NCBI GenBank assembly: GCA_027923505.1
Contig: BROI01000020.1
Coordinates: 558,001 to 622,000 of the forward strand
Source: Mayamaea pseudoterrestris
Taxonomy: Eukaryota
Reading direction: 5' to 3'
DNA: 64,000 bases
This document shows positions 7,361-14,133 of this stretch, piece by piece. Positions within the stretch are counted from its first letter, which is position 1, and each line of letters begins with the position of its first letter. The translations under genes were made by a program, and so were the position numbers. The notes below the pieces were generated by a model. The model was given only the letters and a program-made list of their open reading frames with translations, searched no databases and was not told where the DNA came from.

Positions 7361-8239
7361 ATTAAATAAGGCTATTACTCAGACTAAGTTTGTACATGTC
7401 GTGCCATTTGAATGGTAATGGCAAGCTATGTTCTATCGACTGTAACGAGGGAATAAGTAGCTCGTCAAACTCTGAGTGTCGCACCGCGGTGCCGATAACG
7501 CTGCGACACACCGCTTGCCATCAACCATCATGGTCAAATTCGACCATGAGGATTGCACGCCATTGATTTCTCCCAAGATGAGACTATGCGTCTCACTAGA
7601 CGACAAAATGGAAGCAGAAGACGTTGTAAATGCTCCTTGACTATATTGCTAGCTTTGATTATCTCTCTAGCAATTCTACTGCTCTGTCTACTGCTGCATC
7701 GGGTTTCACTTGGATCGAATCCTTCATTCACCGAGCAATTTCGAACAAATGGTTTAAAAACGCATCATGGATCTCCACCAGGCATCTTTCTGCTCGGAAT
7801 GCATCGATCCGGAACGTCGGCCTTATGCCGACTCTTGGCGCAAGCCTTTGACCTTGTCCTTGACGATGCTCATGATGCTGATAACAAAGTCAATGCGACG
7901 AATCTCATTGGCGGCCGCTTCGCCAACGCGCAAGGCTACTACGAACGCACCGACGTGGTGTGGCAAAACAATCACTGGCTCGAGCAATTGAACCTTTCGG
8001 CCTTTTCTCACGTCAAGCGACTGCAGAAGGAGCTGCCAGTGAAACTGCATCTGCAAGAACAACAACAAGAAGACTCGATGTTTTTGCCACTGGATGGAAA
8101 TGGAACGCACGTGATTGACTTTTTGATGCGAAGACAAACAAGAATGACTATCAGCAAGAAGCAAGAGCCTTCTCTAATGCAGCAGCGACAGCCATGGCTC
8201 GTCAAGGATCCTCGTTTATCATTGACCCTTCCACTGTGG

Positions 8240-8450
8240 TGTTGAGCATGGATGAGAACCCAAACCGAAGCGGCAGCGGTGACGTCACGAAGACGGTCAC
8301 ATTTAAGTAAGCGCGGTAAGCGGCAACCGAAGGAGTGGATCGAGGACGATCACTTCTTGGAGAAAATAAGTAAAGTGGTTTTATTGACTCTGTTCTGCTT
8401 AATCATTAGTGTCGCTTCAAGGGCGCGCAAGATATATTCTAGATCCAACA
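8240..8450 (+). repeat. 5' LTR (211 bp)
   Basis: TGTTGAGCATGG...AGATCCAACA; identical to the 3' LTR apart from 63 extra bp between two TAAGTAA motifs (8304 and 8367). Confidence 0.97.
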
Positions 8451-8464
8451 TTTTCTCCAAGAAG
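8450..8464 (+). promoter_or_regulatory. Primer-binding-site position, complementary to LTR-internal 8353-8367 (putative self-priming site)
   Basis: ATTTTCTCCAAGAAG is the exact reverse complement of CTTCTTGGAGAAAAT; it lacks the TGG start of a PBS for a tRNA 3' CCA end. Confidence 0.8.
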
Positions 8465-8477
8465 CGAGTGAAAAGAC

Positions 8478-11400
8478 ATGTCTTCGACGAGCAATACTCC
8501 GACGACAGGAGCGGCGTCGAGCGGTGGAGGTGCACCTCCCGCTCCGCCAGCAAGCGAAGGAAACCGACGCAACCGTCATTATCGTCGTGGGAATCGTGCT
8601 GGGAATCGTTCCGGGAATCAAGGCAATGGTAACAGACTCAACGGACCGAGTCGTGCGCCGAGTGGAAATTTCTGGGCGAAGCGAGCCGACGCTCGCTGGA
8701 TTCATCTACGACTATAACGGTTCGCGCGATCCCGATGGATTCATCCGTACGACGAACGAGATCATCACTTTCGTCGGGCGCTCCTACAAGAAATATACCA
8801 AGGAGCTGCTCAAGGGCATGCGCAACGTGGAACTGGAGATTCCTGACGAGCCTGCACGTCCAACGAAGGATGCCGACACGACGGACTCGGACTGGTCCAT
8901 AATGCTCGAGGAATACAAGGCCGACAAGAAAGAGCATGTCGAGCGCGTGCGTGTATACCCGACTTCCTCGCTGGTCTCTACGCCGTGTTGCATGGACAAT
9001 GCACGGAGCGTATGAAGGATCGTGTCAAGTCGCACGCCAAGTTCCGAGACGCCGAGGAGGACACGGACGGAATTAAGTTGCTGGCGATTATCAAGGAGAT
9101 CTCGCATACGTACGAAGGGCGCTGCAAACTTGTGGATCAAGTCGTGGACATTCAAGCTGAGTTGTTCGGACGTACTCAAGGAGCGCGCGAAAGCCTGCAG
9201 AAATATTACGAAAGCATGGTCACGCTGGCAGACGTGGCGAAGGCGGTTGGCGTCACGATGCACAACGAGATTGTGGCGTTGAACATTGCCAAGGATGACA
9301 ATCGTAACAAGGCGAACAAGGAGGATATCAAGGCCGCCGAAGAGCTCGAGCTTGCGATGCTTTTCGTGCGTGGCGCAACGGGCGAATACGCTGGGTATTG
9401 CAAGCACTTGCGCAACTGCTACCTCGACGGGCACGACAACTTCCCGTTGACGATCCACGATGCATACAACATCATGCAGCGTCGTGAGCATGCGGATGGA
9501 GAAGCCACGTTGCCAACGAACGAGGGCGTGGCGTTTCACACGACTGGTACAGCGCGTGACCCTCCCAGATGCTGGACCTGTCAACAGGTTGGTCATGTGC
9601 AGCGAGACTGTCCTACGAGAACGGAGTCTACGGAGAGTGCGCCGGCTGCAGAGGCTAGTGGGGCGCAGCACTTCACGCTGGGTAGCGAGGAAGAAAGCGA
9701 TGACGACGATGAGGTCGGATACATGTTCGCGCAGCCGCCGAAGGTGAACATCTCGAAGAAGGCTGTGCTCTTGGACAATCAGTCGACAGTGGATCTGTTC
9801 TGCAACGCCAAGATGCTGACGAACATTCGCCCGGTGCCAACGTGGATGGTGACGGCGCAACGCTGGTACAGTAAGGACGAACATGATGGGCGACCTGGAG
9901 GGCTATGGTCCGGTGTGGTGGTATCCGCAGGACTGGCGAACATTTTGAGTTTGGCGCAAGTCCGCAAGAAGTTTACCGTGGAGTATCTCATGCACGGCGT
10001 GGATCGTCCAATGTTCGTTGTGGAGAAGCCGGATGGTAAGCAGCGAGAGTTTGTCGAGACTGACTCTGGGCTGTATGTTTGCGAGAGCTTTTCGAAGGGC
10101 AAGCGCAGCGATGTCAAGGATGGAGTGGCGATGTTGACTACGGTAGACGATAACCGTACTAACTACACCAATGATGACTATTTACGCGCTGTTAGAGCTA
10201 GGGAACTGCAAATCAAAATTGGACGGCCAAGCCTCAAGGATTACCTGCGCATCGTTACTAGCAATCAGTTGCCGAACTGTCCTGTGACGAAGGCCGACAT
10301 CCTGGCTGCTGAGCACATCTTTGGACCAGATGTTGGCTCGTTAAAAGGAAAGACGACGCGTCGCGCGTCGCATCTGGTGAAGCCTGCGATTGTTGAGCAG
10401 CTTCCACCGGCTATCATGAGTCGCTATCGAGACGTTACTCTTTGTGCTGACATCATGTATATCAACAAAGTCCCTATGTTGGTGACGTTCTCCCGCAGCA
10501 TTCGTTTTGCTACGGTTGAGGTGATTCAAAACCGTACGCTTCCGGTTATGTTGAAGGCAATCGAGTCTGTGTTGAAGATTTACGCACGCGGTGGGTTCCG
10601 TGTCGTCGCGGCTCTGATGGATGGGGAGTTCGCTCCAATGCTTGGCGCGTTGGCTGATCTCGGAGTGGCGCTCAATGCGACATCTGAGGATGAACACGTT
10701 GGCGAAATTGAACGTTTTATCCGTGTCGTGAAAGAACGGGTGCGCGCGACATACAACACGTTGCCATTTAAGCACGTGCCGGCACGCTTGGTTATCGAAA
10801 TGACGAAGTCTGCCGTGTTTTGTTGAATGCGTTTCCGAACGAGCGTGGCATTTCGAAGGATCTCAGTCCACGCACTATTGTGACTGGTCAGACAGTTGAC
10901 TTTAATCGGCATTGCAAGTATGAATTTGGTCAGTATGTGCAAACGCATGAGTCGCACAGCAATGACATGCAGGCGCGCACGATCGGTGCGCTGGCTCTGC
11001 GCCCGACTGGTAATGTGCAGGGTGGGTTTTATTTCCTCAGTTTGTCTTCGGGCAAAGTTCTGAATCGTGGGCACGCTACGCCTTTGCCCATGCCTGATGA
11101 TGTCATTGAGCGCGTGCATCGTCTCGCTCGTCAACAGAAGGCCAATCCGGGCATCGTGTTCATGGACCGCCACCGTGTTGCGGAGGCTGCTGAGCCAGTC
11201 ATGTGGCACGAAGATGACGCCGAGGATGATGATGACTCTGATTATGATGACGACGCTTCTCGCGGTGACGACGACTCTGCCGGCGGAAGCGAAGGAGTGA
11301 ATGCGACCGATGACGACGACGACGACGACGATGGTGCTGACGGCGCAATCGAAGGAGTGCCGAACGACGAGGATGGTGAGGCCATTGACGGCGAACTTGA

Positions 11401-13319
11401 CGACGCGCCAGCCGTGGATGATGGCGAAATTGAAGGAGTGCCCGATGAAGGCGAAATTGAAGGAGTGCCAGCTGCTGCAGACGAAGAGGATTTCGATGCG
11501 CGCTATGGCCCACGCACTGGTCGGTATGGCCTGCGTGCGCGCAAACCTCGCTCGTTCGCTCATTTGTTCACGCTCGACGCTGCAGAGGAAGTGTCGGAGC
11601 CACTCGTCACGGCACAGATGAATATGCGACAAGGTTTAAAGGCTTTTGGCGATGCTGGAGTGGAGGCAGTGCGCAAGGAAATGCAGCAGCTACACGACAG
11701 GCACGTCATGAAGGCAGTCCCCCAATGCACTCTGACTCCGCAGCAGCGCAAGGACGCTCTGGCGTATTTGATGTTTCTCAAGCGCAAGAGATGCGGGACT
11801 GTGAAGGGACGCGGATGCGCGGATGGACGCAAGCAACGAGCATACACTGCAAAGGAAGACGCAGCATCTCCAACGATAGCGACAGAGGCCATCTTTCTGA
11901 CAGCTATCATTGACGCTATGGAAGGGCGCGAGGTTGCTGTGGTTGATGTACCGGGTGCTTTCATGCAAGCGGAAATGGATGAGTTGGTGCACGTTCGTTT
12001 CACTGGGAAGATGGTGGAGCTACTGTTGGAAATTGATCGCGAGATGTACGAGCCTTGCGTCACAATGGAGAATGGCGAGAAAGTCATGTATGTTGAATTA
12101 CTCATGGCGCTTTATGGTACGCTTCGAGCAGCGCGACTATTCTGGGAGAAGTTGTCCGCAAAATTGCTTGAGTGGGGCTTCGAGAAGAACCCGTACGATC
12201 CGTGTGTGTGCAACAAGATTGTCAATGGGAAGCAAATCACCGTGGGATGGCACGTGGACGATTTGAAGATTTCGCACGTCGACGTGAGCGTAGTGGATGA
12301 GTTCATCGCGCAGATGGATGAGGAGTTTGGCAAGGAGACTCCAATGAATAAGTCACGCGGAAAAGTGCACGACTACCTCGGCATGGTATTGACTATACTA
12401 AGCCTGAGAAGTAGCAATCAACATGGTTGACTATGTGAAGAACATCCTGCATCATGCGCCAGACGACATGGATGGAACGGCAGCTACTCCGGCAGCCAGT
12501 CACTTGTTTCAGATATCGGAAAATCCTGTCATGTTGAGCGAAGCGAAGAAGCAGATTTTTGTGACGATTGTGATGCAGTGTCTGTATCTGAGTCAGCGAG
12601 CGCGACCGGATATTCGCACAGCGATTTCTTTCTTGAGCACGAGGCTGCAGCAGCCTGACGAAGACGACTATAAGAAGGCTGCAAGAGTGATTAAATATTT
12701 ACGCGGAAGCGTGGACATGGTGTTGACGCTGAAGGCGGACCAGTCCGGGATAGTCCAGTGGTGGGTGGATGCGTCGTACGCGGTGCACCCAGACATGAAG
12801 GGTCACACTGGTGGAACAATGACACTTGGCCAAGGATCAGTGTACAGTACGTCGGCTAAACAGAAGTTGGTAACAAGAAGCTCGACGGAGAGCGAAGTTG
12901 TGGGAGTTCATGATGTGCTACCGCAGTTGCTGTGGACAGGATATTTTCTGAAGGCGCAAGGTTTCGGGGTCAAAGACACGAAATTGTATCAAGACAATAT
13001 GAGTTCAATGCTGTTGGAAAAGAATGGCAGAAGCTCAAGTACAAAGCGCACGCGACACATGAATGTTCGGTACTTCTTTGTGAAAGATCGCGTGGCAGCT
13101 GGTGAAGTCAACATTGAGCATTGTCCGACCGGAGACATGGTCGCGGATTTCTTCACGAAACCATTGCAGGGAGCCCAGTTTGGCAAGCTCCGCAACCTGG
13201 TTATGAATCTGGCCTCGAGCAGTAAGTACTACTCGGCCCAAAGGAGTGTGTTGAGCATGGATGAGAACCCAAACCGAAGCGGCAGCGGTGACGTCACGAA
13301 GACGGTCACATTTAAGTAA
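8478..13319 (+). CDS. Copia gag-pol polyprotein, broken into several ORFs by small indels (about 8670, 8958, 9850-9930, 10822, 12390-12410)
   Basis: LHGQCTERMK (gag), CWTCQQVGHVQRDC zinc knuckle, VLLDNQSTVDLFCN protease, integrase D-D-E (CADIMY/MDGEF/HVGEIER), RT VDVPGAF and WHVDDLK, RNase H WWVDASYA and ADFFTKPLQG. The stop codon lies inside the 3' LTR. Confidence 0.95.
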
Positions 13320-13396
13320 AGTGGTTTTATTGACTCTGTTCTGCTTAATCATTAGTGTCGCTTCAAGGGCGCGCAAGATATATTCTAGATCCAACA
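13249..13396 (+). repeat. 3' LTR (148 bp; 63 bp shorter than the 5' LTR)
   Basis: Same termini as the 5' LTR, no substitutions seen, and a single TAAGTAA at the deletion junction. Confidence 0.97.
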
Positions 13397-14133
13397 TGTG
13401 GCTCCTTCACTGGCGAACAGCAATCGCGAATCAGCAAGAATTTCACCTTGCAGATCCTGCAATTATCATTCTTTACAGACATCCAATACAAGTGGCCTGG
13501 GTGAGCCGACGACGATTGCACTACAATCTTGGCGCTGGGTCGTGGGCGAGTATATGAATAAGTAAAGTGGTTTGCGCTGCGGCGATTGACTTGTTCTGCG
13601 GCTGTGTTAATATTGGAGGCATGAACAAGGTCAAGTCGAACCTACTTTCATCCAACGCCGCAGCAGCATCGCCACATGTATCACTGCAACGCGACCAACA
13701 GTTCCTTCCCGACTGCACGCTGGACTACCAGGACCGCGAGAAACCACTTAACATTCGTTGGAAGTATTTAAACTTGACCATGTCTTCGTCGCAGCAAGTT
13801 TTGGACAAGAAGCGGGTCCGACAAGCCATGCTGCTTTACTGCGACATGCAGAGTGGACGGGCCATGCAAGACGACTATGTGCATGGAAACGAATGGAACA
13901 TGCTGGAGCTGGCGTAGCAAAAGAGACGGTGGTTGTGATGCCGCTTGTTTGGCGCTCGGCAATGTTTAACCCTGGCATATTAAACCAGGCACATACTCTT
14001 CGAACCTTGCTGTATCCAACATACTGGCATACGACGATTGTGATTATTTGCCTGAATGTACGTAGTGCTTCAGTCCAGCTCTCATAACTCTAAAATATTA
14101 TATCCCCTCCCCTTTCCTTCTAATTATAGTGCG

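Follow-up and report, generated by a model that had tools for sequence, protein, structure and literature searches.

Known and predicted self-priming retrotransposons

Self-priming of reverse transcription, in which a retrotransposon uses the start of its own transcript rather than a transfer RNA (tRNA) as primer, is experimentally established for Tf1 and Tf2 from Schizosaccharomyces pombe and for the Tf1/sushi group. As described for Tf1, the mRNA pairs by its first 11 bases with a primer-binding site (PBS), and cleavage by RNase H takes place between bases 11 and 12 (PMC7175516). The subject of this report is a long terminal repeat (LTR) retrotransposon of the Ty1/copia type, found in a 64,000-nt stretch of DNA from the diatom Mayamaea pseudoterrestris (contig BROI01000020.1, positions 558,001 to 622,000 of the forward strand; hereafter, the window, whose own numbering is used throughout). 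This element and the diatom copia clade to which it belongs probably prime their reverse transcription in the manner of Tf1, without a tRNA. As in Tf1 and its relatives, the PBS directly follows the 5' LTR and is complementary to the element's own (here predicted) transcript start, a PBS of the tRNA type is lacking (here apparently), and a stem-loop stands in the U5 region of the LTR, between the primer and the PBS. Unlike Tf1, which is a Ty3/gypsy element, the element has a reverse transcriptase of the Ty1/copia type (RVT_2), the arm that pairs with the PBS measures 14-17 nt instead of 11, the hosts are diatoms, and the case is built from sequence alone. The element would work like Tf1 without being a member of the Tf1/sushi clade of Ty3/gypsy, since its reverse transcriptase is RVT_2 and all of its close relatives have copia-type polyproteins.

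Among Ty1/copia elements, a sequence-based prediction of self-priming exists for the plant lineage TAR, which includes Houba and Osr-1, two elements for which it had been proposed earlier (Neumann et al. 2019, PMC6317226). The diatom elements, which apparently lack a tRNA-complementary PBS, resemble TAR in being copia elements without such a site for which self-priming is a prediction; unlike them, TAR comes from land plants. In the fungal GalEa copia elements, a 'Conserved Hairpin Site' is found in place of the PBS, consisting of a 9-bp palindrome and a nearby hairpin, and its authors describe finding no complement to it in the LTR (PMC5445492). GalEa shares with the diatom elements the absence of a tRNA PBS (apparent in the latter) and a conserved structure whose start is the final A of the 5' LTR, whereas the complement is here a 14-17 nt segment of the LTR itself, located about 100 nt upstream. 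A comparison within diatoms is offered by the CoDi groups of copia elements, which have been described as having short LTRs (163 bp in Blackbeard), as recently active, and as polymorphic in their insertions (Maumus et al. 2009, PMC2806351). The element of the window, also a diatom Ty1/copia element, is like them in its short LTRs, its apparent recent activity, and its insertion polymorphism. The main text of the CoDi description, with one occurrence of 'pbs' and none of 'tRNA', does not treat the PBS or priming (PMC2806351).

The mechanism is not new, and the diatom copia clade would join the self-primed LTR retrotransposons that were already known. The original prediction, which had been made from the letters of the window, proposed that this copia lineage primes itself; this part is supported by 32 covarying and perfect pairs of arm and PBS, by the position of the PBS at the LTR end, and by the lack of an initial TGG. 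Self-priming is not a novelty for Ty1/copia, on the other hand, given that it had already been predicted for the plant lineage TAR (PMC6317226). No report of self-priming in diatom elements was found in the full-text literature, a search outside of which lie Repbase and most subscription journals, so that an earlier notice is possible.

Arm and primer-binding site of the element

The arm and the PBS (Table 1) form a perfect 15-nt inverted repeat with 82 nt between them. [quoted passage not shown] By our own arithmetic, the chance for a given 15-mer to meet its complement at one of the approximately 200 positions of the LTR is about 2e-7. The 15-bp helix is present in the minimum free energy (MFE) fold of 8352-8480, a fold with z = -2.0. 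All the coordinates that had been read from the sequence proved exact, both for the arm and the PBS and for the TCACTT at 8350-8355; the perfect reverse complementarity of 15 nt inside the same LTR was confirmed, and the remark that the PBS does not begin with TGG holds true here and in all the 32 families described below.

During reverse transcription, the 3' end of the primer sits opposite the 3' end of U5. Because the complementarity starts precisely at this end of U5, the inverted repeat is read here as a priming structure. A search of 8200-8560 against Rfam returned nothing tRNA-like, but only two rows at chance level (E = 4 and 7.5), and tRNA scans found no tRNA in the window or in the 20 of the 78 sister loci that were scanned.

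A longer stem was considered as well. In the MFE fold of 8311-8520, pairing continues outward of the TCA that precedes the arm, with 8340-8347 joined to 8481-8488 and 8332-8337 paired beyond that. This extension is regarded as a coincidence because this fold is no better than those of shuffled sequences (z = -0.78) and because the outward positions pair at chance level in the 32 families.

Conservation of the layout in sister loci

The integrase-reverse transcriptase (INT-RT) fragment of the window was aligned with 22 relatives for a search of metagenome contigs for related loci. The best 80 of 559 confirmed relatives, which correspond to 78 loci, were surveyed, and all counts of sister loci refer to these; the identity of their best segment to the window protein is 43-73%. 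The loci, 387,884 nt in all, were scanned for perfect inverted repeats that measure 12 nt or more and have AAC or AACA immediately before their 3' arm. Besides the site of the window itself, the scan returned 48 sites in 46 loci, while 20 block shuffles gave 0 or 1 site apiece and the opposite strand of the real loci gave 2.

The elements follow one and the same order. First comes (C)TCA, followed by an arm of 14-17 nt and, in many cases, by CTGGTTTA; the loop measures 82-151 nt and gives way to (T)TCAACA and to a perfect complement of the arm, and the ATG of gag is located 2-58 nt downstream of this complement. In addition to the 46 loci that carry the layout on one contig, it can be followed in L017, L060, and L076 through their 3' LTR, since their contigs start within the 5' LTR and the complement of the PBS, preceded by CTCA, is found in the 3' LTR copy. 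The conservation of the complementarity in sister families, which the original prediction had named as a test, was checked in this way and is found in 49 of the 78 loci, with 32 distinct pairs of arm and PBS that are all perfectly self-complementary. A match to the N terminus of gag was obtained in 49 loci, 47 of which have the layout; the two left out of the layout count are L061 and L062, whose contigs have no second LTR and start, respectively, 46 nt and 6 nt ahead of the end of the first. The layout is also present in L035 and L046, which gave no gag match, and the 27 loci with neither a match to the gag N terminus nor a scan site were not viewed individually. Among the surveyed loci there is no assessable counter-example: every one that holds both regions shows the pairing.

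The PBS starts within one base of the LTR end in all four elements in which this end could be fixed independently, either by the TSD (the element of the window) or by the junction between LTR and flank (L017, L056, and L060). The arm is also present in the 3' LTR copies of seven loci (L012, L032, L056, L075, L017, L060, and L076). Several families have their ATG only 2-3 nt past the PBS, and therefore no space for another primer site.

Three of the loci, L012, L054, and L075, contain two related elements in tandem with a common LTR, where the repeats are about 2-3.8 kb long and spaced by about 5.2 kb. This arrangement recalls the tandem Tf elements described as resulting from integrase-independent insertion at PBS homology (PMC11042837).

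Covariation of arm and primer-binding site

The 46 loci and the window contain 32 distinct arms, whose sequences are essentially unrelated, with a mean of 6.4 of 14 positions in common. Each of these arms matches its own PBS at 14 of 14 positions, while the match to the PBS of another family has a mean of 6.37 and a maximum of 13. One representative per distinct arm was aligned with MAFFT (alignment A2). On this alignment, the helix of 15 pairs formed by arm and PBS (helix 1) has 92.0% of its cells paired, compared with 57.6% in 500 shuffles, none of which attains the real value, and most of the unpaired cells come from a few rows misaligned by MAFFT. Both sides are changed in 157 cells, against 53 in shuffles, and such changes are seen in 14 of the 15 pairs. 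Sliding the partner by 1-3 columns leaves 37-50% of the cells paired. From the alignment alone, RNAalifold predicts exactly helix 1 and no other helix.

The PBSs are mostly A+T-rich, show no conservation between families, and in none of the 32 cases start with TGG. Because of this lack of a TGG start, together with the family-specific and mostly A+T-rich sequence of the PBS, a common tRNA primer, or a common tRNA half, is excluded as a fit for all the sites, judging from the sites themselves. The sole sequence in evidence that would fit each PBS is the element's own LTR arm.

In retroviruses, the PBS is copied again from the tRNA primer in each cycle. If the PBS of the diatom elements were likewise templated from the primer, and not just under selection as part of an RNA structure, the expected outcome would be the one seen: helix 1 is nearly free of G-U pairs and mismatches, unlike the hairpin next to it in U5. 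Helix 1 is almost purely Watson-Crick, with 2 G-U cells among 477. It has been described that the cDNA of Tf1 keeps a copy of the PBS at its end (PMC11042837).

The neighboring U5 hairpin consists of the pairs 8409-8412 with 8425-8428 and 8414-8416 with 8422-8424, and appears in the MFE fold of 8352-8480. On alignment A2, with its 32 families, 83.6% of the cells of the hairpin are paired. None of 500 shuffles attains this value (64.1% in shuffles), and sliding leaves 29-49% of the cells paired; the test somewhat favors the hairpin, as it was picked by eye from the sequences before counting. Double changes occur at 7 of its 7 pairs, and the hairpin has 18 G-U cells among 207, plus mismatches. 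In its position between primer and PBS it recalls the U5-IR stem-loop of Tf1. A U5-IR-like stem-loop is reportedly named as required for Tf1 in the title of a 1998 paper by Lin and Levin.

Predicted transcript start and course of priming

Of the 32 families, 23 have the TCA right next to the arm, 4 have its A as the first base of the helix, and 1 has a gap of 1 nt; the 4 families without TCA have GCA, CCA, or TTA in its place. In the 28 families with TCA, the next base is T (18 families) or C (10), followed by T in 16 and by A in 12. The complementarity ends at the TCA, with the positions further out pairing in only 0-12 of the 32 families, which is chance level. TCAH(+1)W has been proposed as a diatom initiator (Inr)-like motif, with flanks CAY(+1)A in FCP genes, and in both of them CA is immediately followed by the base marked +1 (Kadono et al. 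2015, PMC4686930). The likeness of TCACTT to a diatom initiator, which had already been pointed out, agrees with this motif. The start had been placed at about A8352, but the motif would put +1 at C8353 instead: because TCA followed by T or C and then by T or A fits TCAH(+1)W with +1 after the CA, the transcript is predicted to start at C8353, the first base to be paired, just as in Tf1. A TATA box was sought by eye, without quantification, in the 75 nt upstream of the arm, and no conserved one was seen.

The course of priming that is proposed would begin with transcription in the 5' LTR from the base after the conserved TCA, here C8353. The first 14-17 nt of the RNA (8353-8367) would then fold back over the 82-nt loop, which holds the U5 hairpin, and pair with 8450-8464. 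The element's own RNase H would cleave past U8367, where the arm has its 3' end, and the fresh 3'-OH would be extended through U5 and the R region, giving rise to the minus-strand strong-stop DNA, which would move to the R region at the 3' end. The PBS would be copied anew from the primer during the synthesis of the plus-strand strong-stop DNA and, as this would happen in each cycle, arm and PBS would stay perfectly complementary while both of them drift.

Weighing of alternative explanations

Several points weigh against this proposal. The reading frame of the copy in the window is broken in the window sequence, and its 3' LTR lacks the arm as the result of a 56-nt deletion (both are treated in the next section). 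The U5 hairpin was chosen by eye, as mentioned, and the Inr-like motif comes from the visual survey of one paper, in which it is present in 68% of the upstream regions of P. tricornutum, making it weak evidence for a start (PMC4686930). Finally, the contigs of L017 and L060 have as their first base the one that directly follows the arm, and that of L076 starts one base further on and has its other end (L076:5899) there too. If these contig ends were transcript starts, the arm would belong to U3 and would not be the 5' end of the RNA. The breaks lie at the predicted point of cleavage and strand transfer, and they may be due to heterogeneity between copies, to a real RNA or DNA end, or to an effect of the assembler.

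These contig ends speak for an explanation in which the same arm primes, but not from the 5' end of the RNA. Transcription would then start just past the arm, and the arm copy located toward the 3' terminus of this RNA, or of another one packaged with it, would pair with the PBS and be cut; in a variant of this, a short LTR-derived RNA would act in trans. The arms found in the 3' LTR copies of the seven loci named above also speak for it. However, the contigs of L017 and L060 run into 3' flanks of 348-687 nt and so do not resemble plain transcripts, and the end of a contig is not the end of an RNA. In addition, it is at the 5' edge of the arm that TCA with its following two bases is found and that the pairing stops, as a 5' end would predict, whereas no Inr-like motif is present at the 3' edge. 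Tf1, the precedent that has been studied experimentally, is described as having its primer at the RNA's own 5' end (PMC7175516). An arm in U3 is thus considered unlikely.

Priming from the 5' end of the RNA has also to be set against explanations in which the arm is not the primer. The inverted repeat could do no more than close the 5' leader as an RNA structure, with a role in packaging, dimerisation, or translation control, while another primer is used. As a matter of general knowledge, leader structures are common in retroelements, and the pairing and the U5 hairpin would indeed form a compact leader, in line with the z value of the fold of 8352-8480. It is nevertheless unlikely that this is all, given that the 3' arm starts within one base of the end of U5 in each of the four testable elements, that no conserved or TGG-type site is present and several families have no room for another site before the ATG, and that the near absence of G-U pairs and mismatches in helix 1, unlike in the adjacent hairpin, points to templating. 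The remaining explanation is that a host tRNA supplies the complement of the PBS, in one of its internal parts or as a fragment, in the manner of Drosophila copia, and that the match to the LTR is incidental. Priming by half-tRNAs is described as known in several copia lineages (PMC6317226), but here it would have to account for 32 unrelated, mostly A+T-rich PBSs, each of them perfectly matched by its own LTR. As tRNAs are conserved, they could not follow such variation and, with nothing tRNA-like found by Rfam in the region either, this explanation is very improbable and close to refuted.

Structure and state of the copy in the window

The features of the element are collected in Table 1.

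Table 1. Position of the retrotransposon and its parts in the window.
Feature	Position	Strand	Remarks
LTR retrotransposon, whole	8240-13396	+	single one noted in the window; flanked by TGTGG repeats
TSD TGTGG, upstream copy	8235-8239	.	same 5 nt at 13397-13401, just outside the LTRs
5' LTR, long form, 211 nt, TGTTG...CAACA	8240-8450	+	direct repeats 100% identical to 3' LTR
56-nt segment, 5' LTR only	8311-8366	+	between TAAGTAA copies at 8304-8310 and 8367-8373
Conserved TCA	8350-8352	+	adjoins the arm; with the next bases C and T fits TCAH(+1)W
Predicted self-primer arm CTTCTTGGAGAAAAT, predicted first 15 nt of the transcript	8353-8367	+	perfect complement of 8450-8464; homologous arms covary with the PBS in 32 families
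Conserved U5 hairpin, 7 bp, one bulged base (8413), 5-nt loop	8409-8428	+	A2 columns 101-108 with 136-142
PBS ATTTTCTCCAAGAAG	8450-8464	+	first base A8450 is the last LTR base; no TGG; family-specific in 32/32 families
gag-pol coding region, zf-CCHC and RVT_2	8478-13316	+	split by four frame changes (translated frames, Pfam)
Polypurine-tract-like AAAGGAGTG	13240-13248	+	abuts the 3' LTR
3' LTR, short form, 148 nt; without TCA and arm	13249-13396	+	LTR comparison
TSD TGTGG, downstream copy	13397-13401	.	pairs with 8235-8239

Since its reverse transcriptase is RVT_2 and not of the gypsy type, the element is assigned on this domain to the LTR retrotransposons of the Ty1/copia type (Pseudoviridae). 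The Pfam match to RVT_2, the copia-type reverse transcriptase, has E = 2.9e-15 in the window (10772-12427) and E of about 1e-16 in P0001, P0003, and P0023, which are relatives. The LTRs of the form TGTTG...CAACA, the 5-bp TSD, and the polypurine-like tract before the 3' LTR are structural features of Ty1/copia as well, and the sequence ...GGAGTG ahead of TGTTG is also found in the sister loci L024, L055, L057, and L072. No Pfam match was obtained, even at E <= 1, for an integrase in the translation of the window element, or for integrase and protease domains in the polyproteins of its relatives (alignment A1, P0001-P0083). In the alignment of these relatives, about 700 conserved residues separate the zinc knuckle of gag (at about residue 240) from RVT_2 (at about 985), and only about 320 residues come after RVT_2. 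This spacing fits the copia order, with the integrase before the reverse transcriptase, without being proof of it, and the integrase of the clade seems to be too divergent for the rve model. The closest protein in the database, with 98% identity, is a hypothetical protein from Mayamaea pseudoterrestris (the source's name), and other named matches come from Fragilaria and Nitzschia.

Compared with the contigs of four sequencing runs, the copy in the window has eight 1-nt indels (at 8677, 8958, 9852, 9853, 9929, 10821, 12390, and 12405), and the four frame changes of gag-pol coincide with sites of such single-base indels. The form of the family that is assembled in the run contigs reads through in frame; thus, either this copy has decayed or the indels are errors of the assembly.

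The alignment of the two LTRs shows 100% identity except for one indel: the 3' LTR reads ...TTTAAGTAAAGTGG... where the 5' LTR has the 56-nt segment, which contains the TCA and 14 of the 15 bases of the arm. In contigs of the public runs X3 and X6, the internal 3' end (13247) is followed by the long form of the LTR, the PBS, and gag, and the 56-nt gap is absent from the run contigs among the matches listed. The long form is the assembled form of the family and, because the X3 and X6 contigs carry it, the short 3' LTR is peculiar to this copy or to the assembly. Under the self-priming model, the arm of a new LTR comes from the 3' LTR, so that the progeny of this copy would be left without primer and the copy itself could not be a lasting source of new elements. 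The right edge of the 56-nt deletion coincides with the 3' end of the arm, a position that is simply explained by the TAAGTAA microhomology too.

Insertion site and flanking host sequence

In run X2, a contig joins position 8234 to 13397 with 5 letters shared, which corresponds to the empty site, and the flanks are also present in this run. The depth in X2 is about 1,100 over the element, compared with about 20 over the flanks. The family is present in multiple copies, and its insertion at this site is either polymorphic or heterozygous. Moreover, the family looks recently active, since the LTRs are identical outside the indel, an allele with the empty site exists, and the depths of element and flanks differ to this extent.

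When the element is excised in silico, one open frame of 281 codons spans the site, with 690 nt before and 153 nt after it (7550-8239 and 13402-13555), and the insertion seems to lie in the 3' part of a host open reading frame, which it disrupts. Just past this interrupted frame, at 13557-13573, the host sequence has an exact match of 17 nt, AATAAGTAAAGTGGTTT, to the LTR just past the arm (8365-8381), and a second short stretch that is similar, ATTGACT.TGTTCTGC, is found at 8384-8399 and at about 13585-13600. The TGGTTT part of the 17-nt match is also kept after the arm in sister families. The stretches shared by LTR and host may represent a common poly(A) or 3'-end signal module, in which case R would end some tens of nt past 8373. 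Poly(A)-tailed contigs were sought in order to map R, and none was found.

Implications for diatom elements and genomes

The chances appear evenly balanced for a broader statement, according to which a widespread clade of diatom Ty1/copia elements, with at least 32 families in metagenomes and, in a Mayamaea-like genome, one that was recently active and numbers about 50 copies, replicates without a tRNA in a Tf1-like manner and represents a self-primed lineage outside Tf1/sushi and TAR that is unreported for diatoms. If true, this clade would be a third and phylogenetically distant home for self-priming, the second one within Ty1/copia, and its elements would be independent of the host tRNA. 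The comparative basis, made of 32 independent pairs of primer and PBS, is unusually clean. The clade would also bear on the idea, raised in PMC3601003, that self-priming by a hairpin is the ancestral state of LTR elements.

From a practical point of view, the layout explains the 'no PBS' calls made by standard LTR annotation in diatom copia elements, and the combination of TCA and arm with a downstream CAACA and complement can serve as a signature for annotating and delimiting them. The families constitute, in addition, a natural data set on the rate at which a pair of primer and PBS drifts when the PBS is templated again in each cycle. Diatom copia elements have been described as stress-activated and polymorphic (PMC2806351), and for this reason the way in which they replicate would be relevant to the evolution of diatom genomes.

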